Shown: one piece after another, positions 24,172-31,015 of the stretch
Layout: each line of letters opens with the position of its first letter
Position numbering within the stretch: the first letter of the stretch is position 1
From: Eubacteriales bacterium
Lineage (GTDB): Bacteria > Bacillota > Clostridia > Oscillospirales > RGIG5299
Assembly (NCBI GenBank): GCA_045542315.1
Contig: JAZQKU010000043.1
Span: 3,041-67,040 of the forward strand
DNA length: 64,000 nucleotides
Direction: 5' to 3'
The notes under the pieces: model-generated
The model's database searches: none
What the model saw: the letters and a program-made list of their open reading frames with translations, nothing else
What the model was told of the DNA's origin: nothing
Made by a program: the position numbers and the translations under genes

Positions 24172-24260
24172 GCTTACCGCGGCGATTTTCACCTTCTTCC
24201 CTTCTTTTTCATATACTGAAAAAGACAGCGATGTCAGACCAAAAACAAAGGAGAAGGATA

Positions 24261-24611
24261 ATGGATTACAAAGCATTTTTCGAGAGCGACGATTACGCCT
24301 GCTCGAAAACGAAAAAGCAAGGCGCGGAAGCCGATGGCAACTTTTTTACCGCTGCTCCCGTCTTCAAGCCGATGACCGAGGCACAGCCGTCAAAAAATGA
24401 ATGCGGCCCCGTAAGATCGCCCGAAACAACGGCGCGGGTGACCCTTTCAATGGAGCTTGACAGAGAGGGTCTTCCTCTTGCGATAGCCTACGTTCCCATG
24501 CAGGCGTGGCGTGAAGTTTACGAGCCCGAAATTGCGATCACACGGGCAACTGTTTTTAAAGAGCTTGACAAGCCGTTTTGTTTAGAGGAGGCAAAAAACC
24601 GTGGACGATAG
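24261..24611 (+). CDS. cotJA: spore coat-associated protein CotJA
   Basis: LAIAYVPMQAWREVYEPEIAITRATVFKELDKPF matches the CotJA domain. ATG 24261 follows AAGGAGAAGG. Confidence 0.85.
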   Translation: MDYKAFFESDDYACSKTKKQGAEADGNFFTAAPVFKPMTEAQPSKNECGPVRSPETTARVTLSMELDREGLPLAIAYVPMQAWREVYEPEIAITRATVFKELDKPFCLEEAKNRGR

Positions 24612-24843
24612 AACCTTACTTACCCGAAAAATTATGGCTTACAGTATGGCGGCAGAGGATTCCCGCCTTTTTCTCGACACTCACCCCAACTGCGATGCGG
24701 CGCTCGATTACTACAATATGAGCCTTAAGAAAAAGATGGAATATTTAAAGGAATACGAGAGCACCTTCGGTGCGATGTCGCAATCGAGCGTTCAAAACGG
24801 CAGATATTCGTGGATAAGCACCCCCTGGCCGTGGCAGATATGA
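24601..24843 (+). CDS. cotJB: spore coat protein CotJB
   Basis: IMAYSMAAEDSRLFLDTHPNCDAALDYYN is the CotJB signature. GTG start follows GAGGAGG and overlaps cotJA by 11 nt. Confidence 0.85.
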   Translation: MDDRTLLTRKIMAYSMAAEDSRLFLDTHPNCDAALDYYNMSLKKKMEYLKEYESTFGAMSQSSVQNGRYSWISTPWPWQI

Positions 24844-24863: not shown

Positions 24864-25061
24864 ATGTTTTTATATGAAAAAAGGCTCCAGTATCCCGTGA
24901 GAATAAAAAATCCGAATCCCAACACCGCAAAGCTCGTTATTTCGGCATTCGGAGGCCCCGACGGCGAGCTCGGCGCCTCGATGAGATATCTTTCACAGCG
25001 CTTTACCGCGTCGCAGGGCGAGGTGATCGGCACCCTTACCGACGTTGGTATTGAAGAATAA
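24864..25061 (+). pseudogene. cotJC: cotJC (Mn-catalase family spore coat protein), 5' fragment, interrupted after codon 62
   Basis: MFLYEKRLQYPVRIKNPNP...GELGASMRYLSQRF...TDVG, then IEE-stop read from the element sequence. Confidence 0.85.
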
Positions 25062-25072
25062 AATTGTTTATG
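25047..25072 (+). other. attL-like junction (GGTA core plus inner 16-bp arm)
   Basis: GGTA at 25047-25050 is shared with 30593-30596. The arm AATAAAATTGTTTATG at 25057-25072 matches 12/16 with the reverse complement of 30575-30590. Confidence 0.6.
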
Positions 25073-25079
25073 ATATAAT
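25051..25079 (+). promoter_or_regulatory. element-borne promoter reading into the small ORF and recombinase
   Basis: TTGAAG (the first 6 nt of the element), 17 bp spacer, TGA-TATAAT extended -10 (25071-25079). Confidence 0.4.
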
Positions 25080-25101
25080 AGTAACACAAGGAGGGGTTAC
25101 T

Positions 25102-25431
25102 ATGAGTTATTACAATTATAGACACAACATAAAAACTAGATTAAAACACTTCTGTCGCAACAACTTGACGAAAGAACAAGCACAAAGTTTGCTATTGTTC
25201 TTTATGGATAACAAAGAGTTATTTTCCCGTTTATGCCAAGCATACAATGAATATAAAGTAAGTTGTGGCAGGGAGTATTTATGTGTGATAACCAATTTAG
25301 ATGCTTTGTTTAAAAACACCGAAGCAGAAGAAGCGTTCATAAAGGAAATTAAAACTTACATAATGGACGTAATTGGTATCAAAAGAGAGGATGTTGAAAA
25401 TGGCACAGATACAGATAATAGAGCCGAATAA
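25102..25431 (+). CDS. small hypothetical protein upstream of the recombinase (candidate directionality factor)
   Basis: 109 aa, AAGGAGGGG RBS, overlaps the recombinase start by 32 nt. No family recognised. Confidence 0.55.
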   Translation: MSYYNYRHNIKTRLKHFCRNNLTKEQAQSLLLFFMDNKELFSRLCQAYNEYKVSCGREYLCVITNLDALFKNTEAEEAFIKEIKTYIMDVIGIKREDVENGTDTDNRAE

Positions 25432-27145
25432 AACAACCCTCAAAACTGACGACAACAAACCGCATAGGGTCTGCGCGTACTGCCGTGTATCGACAGACGA
25501 TACCGACCAAAAGAACTCTCTTGTGGCACAAAAGCAATTTTTCGCAAGGTATTTTAATCTTCATTCAAATTGGACTAATGTTGGCATATTTGCAGATGAA
25601 GGCCTTTCGGGAACCTCTCTTGAAAAAAGAGATGATTTCAACCGAATGTTATTTGAAGCCAGACACGGAAACATTGACATTATTCTTACAAAGGAAGTTT
25701 CCCGTTTTTCCCGTAATGTTCAGCATCTCTTGAATATCGTTGAAGAATTACGGAACAAGGGTGTTTATATTTGGTTTTTGTCTGACGACATAAACACCGA
25801 GAAACATGACTATCGAGAGAAATTGACACAGATAGCAACCAATGCCGAACAAGAGAGTTTAAGAACTTCTCGCCGTGTTCGTTGGGGGCAGCAACAACAA
25901 ATGCAACTCGGTGTCATTTTCGGTCGTAAAGAAATGTACGGGTATAATATCGTCAAGGATGACAACGGCATACAACATTTTGAAATCATACCCGAAGAAG
26001 CCGAAGTCATTAAAAAGATTTTTGAGTGGTTCGCAAGTGGCGAGGGTACTCACCGAATTAGCAGACGATTAGAGCAACAAGGTATCACTACCAAGCAATA
26101 TAAAAACGGGTGGAGTAATACTGTAATTCTTCGCATATTGCGGAACGAAAAATATGTGGGCGACTTGGCACAGGGCAAAACCTACACCCCCGACCCACTC
26201 ACCCACAAAAAGAAATACAACACGGGGCAATCATACCGATTTTATATAACCGACCACCACCCCGAAAGTGCTATTATTGACCGAGATTTATGGAACAAGG
26301 TGCGAACGATTTTAGAAGAAAAAGCACCGAGCGAAGAAATTAAGGCAAAGCACTCAAACCGCTATTGGACAAGCGGCAAGGTGTATTGTGGTTTATGTGG
26401 TGGCAGATATGTCAGTTATGTGAAGAAACAAAAGAACACCCCTTATCGTGCTTGGGTGTGCTTTGAAAATCACCAAAGGGGCAATTACAAGCAAATAACA
26501 CTTGATACGGGCGATACTGCACTTGTGGGTTGTAATGCTCTGCGAGTAAATGACAGAGTGCTAAAAACGGCAGTTCACGATATTATTACTGCATATATCA
26601 TCCCTTATAGAGAAACTTTGCTCAACGAAATGAAAAAGGAAATTGCCGAACTGTCAAAACCCAAAGACAATACCAAGCAGATAGAAAAACTACAAACGGC
26701 ACTTGAAAAGAAGCAAGGCGAAATCTCAAAGCTCACTTTGGGTTGGTCGGGTGGCTCGGTGCCTGATATTGCCTATTATTCAAGCATAGGGACACTTAAC
26801 AAGCAATATGAAGATTTACAAACACAACTCCGTAAAATGCAAGAACAAGGCAATTCTGCGAGTGCAGAGATACAAATATATACCGAGTATATAGAACAGC
26901 TTGAGTCTGTGCTCTCTCTTTCCGAGAACGACTTAAACGAGGCATTTTACGAAAGGGTTACAAAGCAGATTTTTGTTTATCCCCTTAATCTGTTGGAGTT
27001 TCGTTTGTCATTTATCCCAATGCCGATTTATATGCAATATAAGACATCAGGCAGAGGCGACGATTACACGGCAGAGTTCACTATCCTATCAAAAGAACAG
27101 TTTGCAGAACTGCTTGAAACTGCACCTAAAAACGAAATTGACTAA
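25400..27145 (+). CDS. large serine recombinase (SpoIVCA/SprA/TndX-like)
   Basis: YCRVSTDD catalytic Ser motif, resolvase core (LTKEVSRFSRN), recombinase domain, zinc ribbon (CGLCGGRY...WVCFENH) and a C-terminal coiled coil. Confidence 0.9.
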   Translation: MAQIQIIEPNKTTLKTDDNKPHRVCAYCRVSTDDTDQKNSLVAQKQFFARYFNLHSNWTNVGIFADEGLSGTSLEKRDDFNRMLFEARHGNIDIILTKEVSRFSRNVQHLLNIVEELRNKGVYIWFLSDDINTEKHDYREKLTQIATNAEQESLRTSRRVRWGQQQQMQLGVIFGRKEMYGYNIVKDDNGIQHFEIIPEEAEVIKKIFEWFASGEGTHRISRRLEQQGITTKQYKNGWSNTVILRILRNEKYVGDLAQGKTYTPDPLTHKKKYNTGQSYRFYITDHHPESAIIDRDLWNKVRTILEEKAPSEEIKAKHSNRYWTSGKVYCGLCGGRYVSYVKKQKNTPYRAWVCFENHQRGNYKQITLDTGDTALVGCNALRVNDRVLKTAVHDIITAYIIPYRETLLNEMKKEIAELSKPKDNTKQIEKLQTALEKKQGEISKLTLGWSGGSVPDIAYYSSIGTLNKQYEDLQTQLRKMQEQGNSASAEIQIYTEYIEQLESVLSLSENDLNEAFYERVTKQIFVYPLNLLEFRLSFIPMPIYMQYKTSGRGDDYTAEFTILSKEQFAELLETAPKNEID

Positions 27146-27180: not shown

Positions 27181-27225
27181 ACAACTAACTGATAAATAAG
27201 AATTTGTGCCTTGGAGGAAATTTGT

Positions 27226-27984
27226 ATGTGGTTTTATAGGGATGATATAACAAGACCTACAATTTCTGCTGAAGAACAAGTTGAGTCTTCGCATGGAAAA
27301 AAGGATGCTTTTGTGCTTCCAAAAACAGTAGTACTGTTATATATGAGCGGCATTGAGTTTATAAAAGAACGATATGATGTTGAACTAATAACGGAACGTT
27401 TCCCAAGATTTCTTAATGCTTGCCCTATTTATAAGATTAAAGGACACAATGATATTTGCTTCTTAGATGGTGGAAGAGGTGCTCCACAAGCGGCAGATAC
27501 ATTGGAAACTTTGAAAGCATTAGGCATTGAGAATGTTGTTTCAGTAGGGATGATTGGTGGTTATTCAAGTTTAATTAATGTAGGAGATATTATCATTCCA
27601 CCACTTGCATATTCCGAAGAAGGTACGTCTCTACATTATTTTGAAAATGAAGAATATTATAAGCCTAATGAAAAACTATTTAAAGCGGCAGTTGGGTTTG
27701 TTGAAAATTGCAAACAACATTCAATTGTATCAACAGATGCGGTATATCGACAAACATTTTATAAAGAAGCACTATGGAGAAAAAAAGGTGCAGTAGGTGT
27801 TGATATGGAAACATCTGCATTATTTAGTGTTGGAAATTATTTGGATTTAAACGTAGTTGCTTTGTTAATGGTATCTGATATTCATCCTTTAGATGAGAAC
27901 GAAAATAAATGGTCGTGGAAAATGACCAAAGAAATGAGAAAAGAAGTTATTTATAAGGCGATTGATTTTGCTTTATCTATTTAG
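27226..27984 (+). CDS. PNP/UDP family 1 nucleoside phosphorylase-like protein
   Basis: GGRGAPQAADTLETLKALGIENVVSVGMIGG, INVGDIII, EGTSLHY and GVDMETSALF parallel the uridine/purine nucleoside phosphorylase motifs. Very AT-rich codon usage. Confidence 0.8.
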   Translation: MWFYRDDITRPTISAEEQVESSHGKKDAFVLPKTVVLLYMSGIEFIKERYDVELITERFPRFLNACPIYKIKGHNDICFLDGGRGAPQAADTLETLKALGIENVVSVGMIGGYSSLINVGDIIIPPLAYSEEGTSLHYFENEEYYKPNEKLFKAAVGFVENCKQHSIVSTDAVYRQTFYKEALWRKKGAVGVDMETSALFSVGNYLDLNVVALLMVSDIHPLDENENKWSWKMTKEMRKEVIYKAIDFALSI

Positions 27985-28018
27985 GATAGATAAATTCCAA
28001 TTTGTCGCTCTCTTATAA

Positions 28019-28091
28019 TAAACAAAACACCTTATGACTGTGGTCATAGGGTGTTTTGTTTATGATGGCGGGACCCTTTTGGGTCCCGGCT
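28019..28091 (+). terminator. two tandem hairpin terminators
   Basis: AACAAAACACCTTATGAC / GTCATAGGGTGTTTTGTT, then CGGGACCC-TTTT-GGGTCCCG followed by TAATTTTA. Confidence 0.65.
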
Positions 28092-28410
28092 AATTTTATA
28101 CCTTTTCTTGATTTTTATTTAAAACATTGTCATGCTATATTTGTATTCAATAATACAATGAAGGAGCAATATTAGAGAAAAAATGAAGGAGGAATATTTT
28201 ATATCTTTGAAAATCACACACAAGAAAACACACACATTAAACCCCAATCATGTGTTGTGTGCCAATGCTTGACTGTAAACGACCTCAAAGGCACACTTCC
28301 CATGATGTTCAATCGTAAAATCGTTGTATCGGGCGATTTTGGTTGAACACCCCAACCGACACGATAAGGTCGGTTTATCGGCGGTAGTTCCTATCGCTGT
28401 TTTGGGATAG

Positions 28411-28700
28411 CGGAGCGACGGCACCGTTATCTTTTATCTGAACAGTTAAACGATACATATATTATTTTTTAGGGTGTCGGTCAATGGGTCGGCACCTTAA
28501 AAATTACATAAATTATGTCGCCATTAACGGCGCGACGTTTACGATCGCGACGACAATGGCGACAAATACCACGAAAGGAGCGACAAAACAATGTCAAAAT
28601 CGTTATTCTATCAATTTAACTCTGCTTTGGACATGTGCTTTGTTTTGCATTTTGACAAGCATAGCGACAAGCACAACCCACAAGCAGATAGCGACCACAT
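28411..28700. repeat. cluster of about 8 GCGAC-core motifs around the tyrosine recombinase start
   Basis: GAGCGACGG, GTCGCC (rc), GGCGCGACG, ATCGCGACGAC, TGGCGACAA, AGCGACAA, TAGCGACAA and TAGCGACCA all fall within 290 bp. Confidence 0.45.
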
Positions 28701-29478
28701 AATAAAATCGTTGTCGGCAAAGAGCAACCTCAAAGACTTTGCTCACGACTTCGTCGCATTTATTAAAAACGAATATGGGGTCAAGCAAGTAAAGGAAATT
28801 ACCCCCGATATGTGCCAATCGTATATAGAGCGAAAAGTAGATGAGGGTTGTTCTTTGAAAACGATTAAGACCTACCAAAGCAATCTGCTCAAACTGTCAA
28901 AGTGTGCAAACAAAGCCTTCAACATTCGCACCGACTATGCGGTGTCGGTTGACGAAAGCAAGATTGAGAAAACCGAGACGATAAAGCAATACTCTTTCAC
29001 CCGTGAGGAAATGCAAAAGATACTCGCAGCCCCTCGTCAATGCGAAAGTCTGTCGGCACTACGGCTGGCATACGATTTGGGGCTTCGTGTCGGGTCTCTG
29101 TCCCGTTTAGAGGTTCGACACATAAACTTTCAAGATAATACCTTACTTGTCTACAAGGACAAAGGGAATAGGTCCAGAGTGCTACAAATGAACGACGAGA
29201 CCGCAAAGTTTCTCCGTCAGCAAATAAAGGGCAAAGACCCCCAAAGCAAGGTTTTCTCGGTGAAACCGTCAAGCATCAACACATATTTGCGGAGACGATG
29301 CACCGCCCTCAATCTCCGCGCCCCGAATGGCGAAATAAAGTCGGGGGTGCACTCAATCCGCAAGTTATGGGCAGAGGAGTTTGCCGAAAAAAACGGGGTC
29401 GCAAAAACGATGGTCGCACTCGGTCACGGGGAGCAAAGGAGCGATTTGGAGCAGACCTACCTGCATAGCAAAAAATAA
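28591..29478 (+). CDS. tyrosine-type site-specific recombinase/integrase
   Basis: C-terminal catalytic pattern: LGLRVGSL (R), HSIRKLWA (HxxR), LGHGEQRSDLEQTYL (H...Y). Confidence 0.8.
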   Translation: MSKSLFYQFNSALDMCFVLHFDKHSDKHNPQADSDHIIKSLSAKSNLKDFAHDFVAFIKNEYGVKQVKEITPDMCQSYIERKVDEGCSLKTIKTYQSNLLKLSKCANKAFNIRTDYAVSVDESKIEKTETIKQYSFTREEMQKILAAPRQCESLSALRLAYDLGLRVGSLSRLEVRHINFQDNTLLVYKDKGNRSRVLQMNDETAKFLRQQIKGKDPQSKVFSVKPSSINTYLRRRCTALNLRAPNGEIKSGVHSIRKLWAEEFAEKNGVAKTMVALGHGEQRSDLEQTYLHSKK

Positions 29479-29529
29479 TTTTAAAATTTTTTGAAAAAGG
29501 GGTCAAAAATACTTGCAATTTAATTTTTT

Positions 29530-29775
29530 ATAAGTTATATAGTTATATATACTTAACTTTTAGGTATTATAGGTATATAACTTTTTTAGGTTATATAGAT
29601 ATTAACTTACATAAGTTAGTAGGTAAAACACTTACTTATAAGGTTTATAGTTAAATCGCTTACATAAAGGTACATAGGCAGATTACTTTGAAAAGGTTTT
29701 AGTTATAACCCTTATTAAAGGTGTTTGTGTAGATATATAACTTAAATGGGTTGAGAAGTTAGATACTTTACAACG
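29530..29775 (+). repeat. AT-rich iteron-like direct repeat array
   Basis: Eight AGGT-initiated units (29562, 29571, 29588, 29621, 29641, 29668, 29694, 29719). Most carry AGTTA/TAACTTA-like second boxes. A palindrome AACTTA-CA-TAAGTT sits at 29604-29617. Confidence 0.6.
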
Positions 29776-29842
29776 GATAATGAATATACTCCTTTTGATT
29801 AGAAAAGTTTAAGTAAATAAACAAAAAGGAGTGTAAGTTTCA

Positions 29843-30193
29843 ATGCTTTCACAAAAACTAAACAATCTTTATGAAAATTATTTTTTAGGTGGTTACATTT
29901 CAAACTTGATTGATAACCCCAACAAACCCTATCTTTCTATCGCCATGAAGTCATATGACAAGGACAAGAGCAAAACTGTCTTTATTATGATTTTCAAAAT
30001 GTCGGGGTATGGCGATAGCAAATACCCGAACCCGACGGCACAAATCGTCAAAGATGCCTTTGAGAAACATATCCCCATTTCCTGTGTCTATTACGATGAC
30101 GGCAAAGGCGGAAACAAAATGTCCTGCTGCTATGCGAACTTCTCGGCAGATAAATATGCCGAAGTTCCCGTTGCCGACGAAATGCCGTTTTAA
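29843..30193 (+). CDS. hypothetical protein, possibly a divergent SSB-like OB-fold protein
   Basis: 116 aa. The C-terminus ...VADEMPF resembles the acidic D-D-D-I/L-P-F SSB tip, and the N-terminal LGGYISNLIDNPNKPYLSIAM pattern resembles an OB fold. This is a weak assignment. Confidence 0.35.
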   Translation: MLSQKLNNLYENYFLGGYISNLIDNPNKPYLSIAMKSYDKDKSKTVFIMIFKMSGYGDSKYPNPTAQIVKDAFEKHIPISCVYYDDGKGGNKMSCCYANFSADKYAEVPVADEMPF

Positions 30194-30206
30194 CGGGGGT
30201 ATGGAT

Positions 30207-30521
30207 ATGAATAAAAACAGATTTGACTTTGCCATATTAAACTGCCGTGAAATCGGCACTCATTTTGAAGGCAATCGCTATTGTTTTACTAGGCTTCCCG
30301 AATTAGAAATAGTTTCGTTTGCCAACTTCAAGTACGAAGACTACAAGCAAATAAACCAAGCATTAGAGGACGATACCTATACACATATATTTTATTCCAT
30401 TGATGACGATAGGTTGCATACAGATAAGTATGACGAATACCGAGACAGAACATATCCCGTATATTATATTGATAGAGACCACTTTGATAAATATTGGAAA
30501 CCCCAAATATTAGAAGGCTAA
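30207..30521 (+). CDS. hypothetical protein
   Basis: 104 aa. ATG 30207 follows GGGGG. No family recognised. Confidence 0.5.
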   Translation: MNKNRFDFAILNCREIGTHFEGNRYCFTRLPELEIVSFANFKYEDYKQINQALEDDTYTHIFYSIDDDRLHTDKYDEYRDRTYPVYYIDRDHFDKYWKPQILEG

Positions 30522-30530
30522 CCAAAGAAA

Positions 30531-30565
30531 GACTGTGCATTGTTGCACAGCCTTTTATTATTTTA
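30531..30565 (+). terminator. rho-independent terminator just inside the right end of the element
   Basis: CTGTGCA-TTGT-TGCACAG stem followed by CCTTTTATTATTTT. Confidence 0.6.
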
Positions 30566-30574
30566 CTATATGCA

Positions 30575-30596
30575 CAATAAAAATCTTATTTAGGTA
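30575..30596 (+). other. attR-like junction (inner 16-bp arm plus GGTA core)
   Basis: CAATAAAAATCTTATT (30575-30590), then TA, then GGTA (30593-30596). cotJC codons resume at ACC 30596-30598. Confidence 0.6.
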
Positions 30597-31015
30597 CCGA
30601 GGAGCTCGGACATATTGAGATGGTAAGCAGCATCGTTTATCAGCTCACCCGCGGGCTTACTCCCGAGGAGATCAAGAAAAGCGGCTTTGACGCCTATTTT
30701 ATAGAGCATACCACGGGAATTTACCCGGTGGCGGCTTCGGGCGAGCCGTTTAACGCAGTGGGATTCCAATCAACCGGTGACATTATCGCCGACCTCCACG
30801 AGGATATGGCGGCGGAGCAGAAGGCGCGAAAGAGCTACGATAACCTTATTACCCTTATCGACGATCCCGACGTGCTTGACCCCCTCAAATATCTTCGCGA
30901 GCGCGAGATAGTGCATTTCCAGCGCTTCGGCGAGGCGCTTCGGGTGGTCGAGGAGGGCTTGAACCCCAAAAATTTTTATTACACAAATCCCTCGTTCCCT
31001 ACCAAGAGAATGTGA
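30597..31015 (+). pseudogene. cotJC: cotJC 3' fragment (about 140 aa)
   Basis: The frame reads (G)TEELGHIEMVSSIVYQLTRGLTPEE...DLHEDMAAEQKARKSYDNL...LREREIVHFQRFGEAL, which are Mn-catalase/CotJC motifs. It is in frame with the 5' fragment when 25049 is joined to 30596. Confidence 0.85.

Follow-up and report, generated by a model that had tools for sequence, protein, structure and literature searches.

The 64,000-nucleotide stretch analyzed here (the window; contig JAZQKU010000043.1 of assembly GCA_045542315.1, from an Oscillospirales bacterium) carries the mother-cell sporulation gene cotJC in two in-frame halves, between which lies a 5.5-kb element of lower GC content. From left to right the element holds a small open reading frame (ORF109), a large serine recombinase, a PNP_UDP_1 phosphorylase, and a block in which a tyrosine recombinase gene is accompanied by an AT-rich repeat array and a gene for a 116-residue protein (ORF116) that resembles single-stranded DNA-binding proteins (SSBs). 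What is this second block, and is it a captured replicon or a nested insertion, as a preliminary description of the DNA had proposed? On the evidence of sequence comparison, we conclude that the segment from 28.07 to 30.55 kb represents the conserved core module shared by a family of integrative elements and is not a landed plasmid or an independent element, because it recurs at ~50 chromosomal loci, was found in no circle, and is accompanied by a large serine recombinase, of varied lineage, in all 14 loci with long flanks. The module may serve the mobilization or DNA processing of the excised circle, a reading that we weigh below against its rivals.

The Block Recurs as a Unit in Small Chromosomal Elements

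Homologs of the tyrosine recombinase fall into ~125 clusters (55-97% identity), all from Clostridia metagenomes or metagenome-assembled genomes (MAGs). The related loci, ~50 in number, are all MAG or metagenome contigs, many of which end at the module; their hosts are Oscillospirales MAGs of Acutalibacteraceae, Oscillospiraceae, and Faecousia. In nearly all of these loci the recombinase gene is linked to that of ORF116, and the module always lies within a small chromosomal element. Flanks of at least 3.5 kb on either side are available for 14 loci, and in every one of these a large serine recombinase is encoded no more than 6.5 kb from the module, so that the pairing of two recombinase classes, which had been considered unusual, is the rule in this element family. 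The partner serine recombinases belong to at least five lineages that are 21-46% identical to one another, and they are encoded 5' or 3' of the module and on either strand. The two halves have therefore been shuffled against each other, and the module is never alone. The proposed nested insertion is not borne out by these data: in the 14 long-flank loci the module was never found apart from a serine-recombinase half, although the lineage of the partner varies.

Homology between the window and copies in unrelated contexts begins at 28052-28103, at a terminator-like hairpin, and stops just beyond a closing terminator hairpin (Table 1), and these limits define a conserved unit of ~2.5 kb (about 28.07-30.55 kb). 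The inverted repeat at the left edge is 92% complementary, the changes in its stem are compensatory across loci, and a terminator scan marks 28069-28088. The right end of the module is a terminator situated 35-80 bp from the serine recombinase att junction. Read from the sequence, the parts of the module are, in order, a promoter-like region, a leader, the tyrosine recombinase, the array, the SSB-like protein, an optional small ORF, and the terminator. The whole elements form, by the same comparison, a family of chromosomal, integrative elements of about 4-7 kb in Oscillospirales, in which variable cargo is placed between the serine-recombinase half and the module.

The small ORF of the window, ORF104, was listed earlier as a protein of unknown kind; it is a real ORF without a family match in Pfam, PHROGs, NCBIfam, or PADLOC, and it has 2 homologs among 5.8 billion proteins. 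The slot that follows the ORF116 stop codon and precedes the terminator is variably occupied, and ORF104 is absent or replaced in most related modules: the slot is empty in loci L010, L011, and L017, and it holds a 59-residue DUF3970 protein in L043, alignable ORFs of ~60 residues in L007 and L042, and an 82-residue ORF in L005. We considered ORF104 as a conserved component and rejected it as an optional near-orphan; the variable occupancy of its slot places it outside the conserved module. No module protein has a PADLOC match, and a role in anti-phage defense finds no support there.

The Two Conserved Proteins Are a Two-domain Tyrosine Recombinase and a Predicted SSB-like Protein

The tyrosine recombinase matches the Pfam family Phage_integrase (PF00589) with an E-value of 4.9e-16 and 59.4 bits (cut-off 27.1). 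Residues R166, K191, H254, R257, H279, and Y290 are invariant in an alignment of 23 homologs, which confirms the R...HxxR...H...Y pattern first noticed in the window. The AlphaFold2 (AF2) model (pLDDT 84) comprises an N-terminal four-helix domain and a catalytic domain, and Foldseek aligns it over its full length with XerA, IntI4, Tn1549 Int, Cre, XerH, and lambda Int, with ~300 columns for XerA, IntI4, Cre, and lambda Int 75-356; by both model and alignment, a core-binding domain is present. The nearest relatives in NCBIfam and the PDB are XerA, XerD, and IntI, in line with the Xer-like character ascribed to the enzyme before. Its scores lie far below the cut-offs of the Xer equivalog models in NCBIfam (46.8 versus 329.6 bits for XerD, 39.3 versus 335 for XerC, and 64.1 versus 220 for XerA), and the integron integrase model TIGR02249, which captures the IntI-specific insertion, gives 40.7 bits against a cut-off of 265. 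Judged by its residues and by the two-domain model, the recombinase is predicted to be catalytically intact.

For ORF116, in which an OB-like pattern had been suggested earlier, the fold evidence is moderate. The AF2 model (pLDDT 73.8) has the OB-like topology b1-b2-b3-alpha-b4-b5, and the best Foldseek matches are nearly all SSBs (mitochondrial, small Mycoplasma, and bacterial), but these matches are weak (E 0.04-0.2, TM 0.4-0.5, with a probability of up to 0.9). The C-terminus, VADEMPF, had been likened to the acidic tail of SSBs, and this likeness holds through the family, in which a tip of the form [D/E]-x-[L/I/M/F/V]-P-F is conserved throughout (DDEFPF, DDELPF, DGDLPF, EDLPF, and DEPIPF are examples) after a variable linker of ~10 to 60 residues. 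Because the linker and the acidic tip recur across the family, the DEMPF tip of ORF116 is, by this alignment, no coincidence. ORF116 thus appears to belong to a restricted small family of predicted SSB-like proteins.

A Structured Leader and a Repeat Array Lie on Either Side of the Recombinase Gene

Directly 5' of the recombinase ribosome-binding site, a conserved leader of ~290 nt has the potential to fold into several hairpins. RNAalifold on 24 loci gave 54 pairs, 28 of which show compensatory changes; under the explicit structure 96.1% of cells are paired, versus 81.4% after shuffling (0/500) and 31-60% in slid controls, and the covariation score is 0.452 versus 0.06-0.11. The + strand folds with -107 kcal/mol (z -6.0) and the - strand with -87 kcal/mol (z -2.7), and these energies, like the invariant G.U pairs, favor the sense strand. 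Conserved motifs that are unpaired include GGUUUAUC, CUUUCAUCUGAACA, ACGAUA, and CAUUAACG. A scan of 24.0-31.5 kb against Rfam with E up to 1 left the leader unmatched and returned only a chance Leu_leader match outside the module. This region may regulate as a 5' leader, constitute an RNA of its own, or act as a folded single strand, and it is possibly a new RNA motif linked to a recombinase. Small peptides encoded in the leader were rejected because reading frames are not conserved across loci, and an Frpo-type single-strand promoter is disfavored, since the invariant G.U pairs and the energy asymmetry indicate the sense strand. Further upstream, a promoter-like conserved stretch is what we infer to be the module's own promoter.

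The 364-bp spacer that follows the tyrosine recombinase has a GC content of 28-29% (0.28-0.29 over 29400-29999). It contains units of the form CTTAnnTAAGGTnnATAGnTA which, by manual parsing, are spaced 25-30 bp apart and span ~240 bp overall; tandem repeat analysis (TRF) gave periods of 26-28, and the autocorrelation peak at lag 26 is modest (z = 2.6) because the unit spacing varies. The AT-rich repeat array of ~250 bp noted in the preliminary description is thus real, with 8-9 genuine repeated units that are kept across loci: every related locus has, at the corresponding place, an equivalent array whose unit sequence has diverged along with it. Where the recombinases of two loci are >72% identical, the similarity of the arrays is 0.88 if the ORF116 proteins are >70% identical and 0.64 if they are <55% identical. 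Array type therefore tracks ORF116 type, not recombinase type, and recombination breakpoints are located at the recombinase/array border. The array is probably an operator or binding region of the ORF116 gene, or a DNA-melting region, as far as this pattern of co-divergence can tell. As an iteron candidate it is an AT-rich and conserved direct-repeat array, but its period is irregular (25-30 bp) and each unit is bounded by a palindrome.

Cargo Is Exchanged between Two Short Sites in the Lineage of the Window

The phosphorylase of the window lies between two short sites, S0 and S1. S0 (GATAAAyww-G/AATTTG, the slash preceding the core) directly follows a fixed extended -10 promoter, and S1 (AAATTCC/AATTTG/TCG) forms the palindrome AAATTCCAATTTGTC; the two have in common the 6-bp core AATTTG, flanked by inverted GAYAAA/TTTGTC. 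Homology with the backbones of L019, L040, L009, and L023 ends at S0, and the S0 motif is present also in L031 and L034. S1 is found 564-603 bp 5' of the recombinase ATG in 11 loci, where it accompanies two unrelated serine-recombinase lineages, and further copies part tandem cassettes in L017 and L019 (S-site positions are 256 and 561 in L017; 6850, 7227, and 7402 in L019; and 213 and 1140 in L034). Near-identical backbones differ in the cargo that they carry precisely from S0 to S1: a phosphorylase in the window, an acetyltransferase in L040, a TM1586-type nitroreductase in L009, two tiny membrane ORFs in L019, and a membrane protein with a helix-turn-helix (HTH) protein in L023.

Among the dozen or so loci with S sites that this analysis covers, no two backbones were found to share an identical cassette. 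The cassette borders are 18-bp palindromes that are neither dif-like nor attC-like, and attC-like sites were not seen. In lineages other than that of the window the S motif was not seen, and the cargo has its own promoters and terminators. The cargo phosphorylase of the window is nearest to the AMP nucleosidase and DeoD-type models, with scores far below their cut-offs, and has no PADLOC or PHROGs match. The extended -10 box TTATGATATAATA recurs at ~27165, ahead of the cargo cassette; its other occurrence is in the promoter-like site at the cotJC junction described below.

The Partner Serine Recombinase Sets the Insertion Site

Both CotJC halves match the Pfam family Mn_catalase (E 5e-18 and 1e-21), and with a mother-cell sporulation gene in two in-frame halves and a large serine recombinase, the cotJC element corresponds to the skin/gin type of intervening element. 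From the split gene and the serine recombinase, excision of the element is predicted. No mention of cotJC as an insertion target was found in the intervening-element literature that we searched. Across the family it is, from the sequence contexts, the partner serine recombinase that sets the insertion site, be it cotJC, a sigK-like gene, or a position next to a tRNA gene. In L027 (SVMI01000001.1, 6607-11609) the split gene is of the sigma-70 family and sigK-like, with a pro-sigma-like N terminus and with Sigma70_r2 and r4 on opposite sides of the element; this element is the smallest, at ~4 kb, and has little besides the genes for an HTH protein, the tyrosine recombinase, the SSB-like protein, and a serine recombinase. 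By its layout, it is skin-like but unusually small. Genes for tRNA-Glu/Met adjoin the elements in L005, L006, and L007.

The cotJC-type serine recombinase of the window has 96-97% identical counterparts in L009, L019, L023, and L048, where cotJC is split again. ORF109 is 81-85% identical in L009, L019, and L023 and is also present in L048. The CotJC halves of these four hosts, by comparison, are only 51-70% identical to those of the window, and this disparity indicates recent interspecies spread of the cotJC-targeting element.

Several further observations concern the junctions. ORF109 overlaps the start of the serine recombinase gene and has no family match. A promoter-like TTGAAG-17-TATAAT with a TG spans the cotJC/element junction (attL, 25045-25080) and is directed into ORF109 and the serine recombinase, its -35 being cotJC coding sequence. 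The motif GGTAyyGArGA is common to attL and attR (30580-30605) and is the probable crossover region of the cotJC-element junctions. In L014 (5769-8876) the cotJC C-terminal half and an attR-like sequence lie 5' of the module on the opposite strand, so that the segment of module plus cargo is turned around with respect to the att ends, in contrast to its orientation in the window.

Table 1. Features of the split cotJC locus, the 5.5-kb element, and its core module (positions in the window)
Feature	Position	Strand	Basis or remark
cotJA	24231-24611		
cotJB	24601-24843		
cotJC, N-terminal part	24864-25061		Pfam Mn_catalase
ORF109, small ORF	25102-25431	+	Travels with the cotJC-type serine recombinase
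Large serine recombinase of the cotJC element	25373-27145	+	Pfam Resolvase, Recombinase, Zn_ribbon_recom
S0 site GATAAATAAGAATTTG, promoter-proximal cargo border	27191-27206	+	Homology with backbone-sharing loci stops
PNP_UDP_1 / AMP-nucleosidase-like phosphorylase, cargo cassette	27211-27984	+	
S1 site GATAAATTCCAATTTGTC, 18-bp imperfect palindrome, distal cargo border	27989-28006	+	Recurs in 11 loci
Pair of hairpins marking the left module edge, the second terminator-like	28015-28066 and 28067-28090	+	Inverted repeat, terminator scan
Promoter-like conserved stretch: invariant CTTG; TTGTCA-16-AATAAT; TGCTATATT	28107-28154	+	Sequence scan, conserved columns
Structured conserved leader, multi-hairpin RNA or + strand single-stranded DNA	28290-28575	+	Directly 5' of the recombinase ribosome-binding site
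Two-domain Xer/IntI-like tyrosine recombinase, 295 aa	28591-29478	+	Pfam PF00589, catalytic residues, AF2 model
AT-rich array, 8-9 degenerate, palindrome-bounded units of ~24-26 bp (TAAG...CTTA)	29531-29769	+	TRF, manual parsing
ORF116, 116 aa, predicted SSB-like OB-fold protein with acidic ...DEMPF tip	29843-30193	+	AF2, Foldseek, tip alignment
ORF104, 104 aa, optional near-orphan accessory ORF in a variable slot	30207-30521	+	
Closing terminator hairpin	30533-30550	+	Homology with other contexts stops at ~30555
cotJC, C-terminal part	Frame open from 30581, ATG at 30620, end 31015		Pfam Mn_catalase

Plasmid and Phage Collections Hold Only Distant Relatives

A blastn search in distant mode with 27985-30600 found no match in 72,556 plasmids and 50,697 phages, and a scan of IMG/VR with the recombinase profile found no relative; the same profile retrieved only 5 short loci from Joint Genome Institute (JGI) metagenomes. 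None of the ~50 related contigs is circular, although such contigs could not reveal transient circles. Contigs of ~3 kb were considered as small circular plasmids and rejected, being linear fragments with different cargo genes and no terminal overlaps. As had been observed before, no recognizable Rep is present: no Rep family was detected by Pfam, PHROGs, or NCBIfam in any ORF of 25.0-30.6 kb. With no plasmid or phage match by blastn, no IMG/VR relative, and no circular contig, the idea of a captured replicon or plasmid module has lost its footing.

The nearest plasmid recombinases found by tblastn are 27-30% identical over their full length and are encoded on small Clostridium and gut plasmids. 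One of them, in pRGI00546, is paired with a Rep_1 protein, and another, in pCQ92_6, stands beside an ORF that matches NikA weakly and below threshold (E 0.0018, 18.8 bits versus a cut-off of 27). The latter plasmid (NZ_CP143540.1; locus L001) is a 3.4-kb plasmid of Clostridium perfringens in which a 29%-identical tyrosine recombinase is the only large gene; the small NikA-like ORF precedes and overlaps it, no Rep gene is annotated, and the plasmid has neither a repeat array nor an SSB-like gene. The region 96-1230 may, from its gene content, be a tyrosine-recombinase-type mobilization module. Plasmids of the pSM101B/pIP404 type were rejected as a model, as the gene 3' of their recombinase is not SSB-like and no array was seen by eye in the intergenic sequence.

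What the Module May Do

Our preferred reading is that the conserved core is a mobilization or DNA-processing module like that of Tn4451 or other integrative mobilizable elements (IMEs). The serine recombinase would integrate and excise the element, and the module would then process the excised circle for propagation. The tyrosine recombinase would act at sites within the element, where it might be an atypical enzyme of relaxase-like or resolving type, or else perform site-specific recombination at S0/S1. ORF116 could cover single-stranded DNA as it becomes exposed and use its tip to recruit host SSB-interacting proteins. DNA with a single-stranded stage typically carries an SSB gene, which is one reason to favor this account. 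The others are that the element spreads between species without phage or pore genes, that the nearest plasmid relatives of the recombinase occupy the "Mob slot" of tiny plasmids, and that tyrosine-recombinase-like relaxases exist whose oriT lies directly 5' of the gene. Taken jointly, a core module of an integrative-element family that also serves the mobilization or processing of the excised circle is a serious possibility but falls somewhat short of being probable. A number of points weigh against it. The recombinase retains a core-binding domain, which is absent from TcpM, MobK, and MpsA (PMC8152469); no oriT, nick site, or coupling protein was identified in the module; and 8-9 repeats with an SSB-like gene as neighbor would be no less fitting for an origin than for a transfer region. 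The S0/S1 sites are recognizable in only ~11/49 loci. As to ORF116, its fold matches are weak (E about 0.04), it has no sequence-level link to canonical SSBs (no Pfam (PF00436), PHROGs, NCBIfam, or PDB sequence match), and a profile search of 1.84 billion cluster representatives returned 27 proteins, none of them a canonical SSB.

The repeats lead directly to another account, in which the excised circle would persist or multiply in the manner of a small plasmid, with the array as an iteron or melting origin, the ORF116 tip recruiting the primosome or replisome, and the Xer-like enzyme resolving multimers. Although 8-9 direct repeats of ~26 bp at 28% GC keep their position across the family, their period of 25-30 bp is irregular and the autocorrelation reaches only z 2.6; although recombinase relatives are present on small plasmids, there is no initiator gene, no DNA similarity to the plasmid or phage records searched, and a count of 0 circular or stand-alone copies among ~50 loci. 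The conserved SSB-Ct-type tip of ORF116 and the simple Xer/IntI type of the recombinase would fit this account, as would the gin element, for whose extra recombinases multimer resolution has been proposed (PMC5595907). The stable conserved structure of ~290 nt in the 5' transcript could also be cited for it, but this RNA stops where the ribosome-binding site of the recombinase begins, which is the behavior of a leader. On balance we consider such a replicon unlikely, and a Rep-less variant, in which the structured 5' transcript would be a ColE1-like preprimer, speculative. A slightly dimmer view has to be taken of an integron-like or dif-module-like platform, in which the recombinase would insert, excise, and shuffle promoter-less cassettes at S0/S1 behind the fixed promoter, with ORF116 assisting if single-stranded DNA is involved. 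Its best arguments are the exchange of cargo exactly from S0 to S1 among near-identical backbones, the use of the same site between tandem cassettes in L017 and L019, the AATTTG core with its inverted flanks, the fixed distance of S1 (564-603 bp) from the recombinase ATG in two unrelated serine-recombinase lineages, and the presence of IntI4 among the nearest solved relatives of the enzyme. These must be set against the restriction of the sites to ~11/49 loci, with other lineages lacking the motif and having cargo with promoters and terminators of its own, against the failure to find an identical cassette in two backbones, and against the integron-integrase score of 40.7 versus 265 bits; moreover, the host Xer or the serine recombinase could act at the S sites instead. 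Its fuller form, in which the recombinase, the ~290-nt leader, and S0/S1 would constitute a new integron-like cassette-capture platform of Firmicutes on serine-recombinase elements, with the SSB-like protein and possibly the RNA as cofactors, seems quite improbable from the sequence. We know of no precedent for an RNA cofactor of a tyrosine recombinase.

Two further accounts assign the block a different relation to the serine recombinase. ORF116 could be a moonlighting recombination directionality factor (RDF) that drives mother-cell excision by the serine recombinase, leaving the tyrosine recombinase as an accessory. There is a precedent in gp25, the RDF of the TG1 integrase, which is a functional SSB (PMC11795197). 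ORF116 accompanies a large serine recombinase in 14/14 long-flank loci, it is encoded directly 5' of the serine recombinase gene on the same strand in sigK-type elements, and no RDF has yet been identified for these elements. Such a role is weakened by the fact that ORF116 is decoupled from serine recombinase type while ORF109 co-travels: serine recombinases that are 96-97% identical pair with ORF116 proteins only 42-45% identical to that of the window, and ORF116 copies that are 90-94% identical pair with recombinases that are 21-27% identical, whereas ORF109, the better candidate, accompanies the cotJC-type recombinase at 81-85% identity. A strictly conserved SSB-Ct-type tip would also be superfluous for an RDF. 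We therefore regard an RDF function of ORF116 as very unlikely, and on this pattern of co-occurrence ORF109 is the best RDF candidate. Finally, the block might be an autonomous tyrosine-recombinase mobile element that parasitizes serine-recombinase elements. The mosaic distribution of the block, which accompanies at least five lineages of serine recombinase and may lie to either side of that gene in either orientation, together with its sharp homology borders at 28.05-28.10 and 30.555 kb, is what a nested insertion would leave behind, but the block is never found outside an element with a large serine recombinase, its right end is a mere terminator 35-80 bp from the att junction, and breakpoints also occur inside it, at the recombinase/array border. 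No repeated att-like core was seen by eye at the block ends, where no systematic search was made. A nested insertion thus appears highly improbable.

Relation to Known Elements

The usual description of gene-intervening elements in spore formers is that of decayed prophages having a single serine recombinase. Among small sporulation-gene intervening elements that are not phages, the nearest is the gin element of Bacillus cereus, which interrupts gerE, is not a prophage, and carries GirC/GirX together with the extra recombinases GirA and GirB, for which a role in multimer resolution was suggested (PMC5595907). Like the gin and skin-type elements, the cotJC element is small and non-phage, splits a mother-cell sporulation gene, and combines a large serine recombinase with extra recombinase genes; unlike in gin, the extra recombinase is of the tyrosine type and sits in a block with a leader, an array, and an SSB-like protein, the hosts are Oscillospirales, and the gene that is split is cotJC.

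Tn4451 is a small Clostridium element with a large serine recombinase and a Mob gene. The present elements resemble Tn4451/Tn4453 and Firmicutes IMEs in being of similar size, in placing their cargo between a large serine recombinase at one extremity and a second, DNA-processing module at the opposite one, in having no phage or conjugation-pore genes, and in their recent horizontal spread. They differ from Tn4451/Tn4453 in that the module lacks a Mob/Pre or HUH relaxase, the candidate for this role being a two-domain tyrosine recombinase, and no oriT was identified in it. The tyrosine-recombinase-like relaxases TcpM (pCW3), MobK (pIGRK), and MpsA (SGI1) have their oriT directly 5' of the gene, and in SGI1 an essential small RNA (sgm-sRNA) is encoded between oriT and mpsA (PMC8152469, PMC9299015). 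These proteins consist of an orphan catalytic domain without core-binding or arm-binding domains (PMC8152469). The module recombinase shares with them the R-K-H-R-H-Y set, and a structured conserved element stands where their cis site or RNA sits; it keeps its core-binding domain, unlike them, and a relaxase role here would be one by analogy only.

In pdif modules, short sites flank exchangeable gene modules. The present system is like these, the Xer/cer system, and the integron integrases in having a simple two-domain enzyme and short palindromic sites that flank exchangeable gene modules, and is unlike them in that the enzyme scores far below the XerC, XerD, and IntI cut-offs and is encoded by the element, and in that the sites are of 18 bp. 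ORF116, for its part, is like the SSBs of bacteria, plasmids, and phages, including TG1 gp25, in its OB-type topology, its variable linker, and its acidic tip ending in hydrophobic-P-F (PMC11795197). It departs from them in having no Pfam SSB match, in belonging to a tiny restricted family, and in being short (116 residues), and it is known from its predicted fold and its sequence. The block as a whole matches no described module: it falls outside the definitions of XerC/D, IntI, a relaxase-like protein, the Pfam SSB family, and an iteron replicon. By its sequence and models it does pass as a generic two-domain tyrosine recombinase combined with an SSB-type tail.

The analysis reveals, at the level of sequence, a recurrent and actively exchanged element family in gut Oscillospirales, built of interchangeable integration units and one conserved uncharacterized block. 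How small non-phage intervening elements spread is an open question (PMC5595907). Several parts of the block have no described counterpart, namely a restricted SSB-like family with a host-type tip, a covariation-supported leader that is absent from Rfam, an array that co-varies with the SSB-like gene, and, in one lineage, precise cassette exchange at short palindromes. If transfer, circle replication, or cassette capture proves to be the function of the module, it would show how minimal elements propagate, and, whichever of these is true, the module would supply a compact set of recombination parts.

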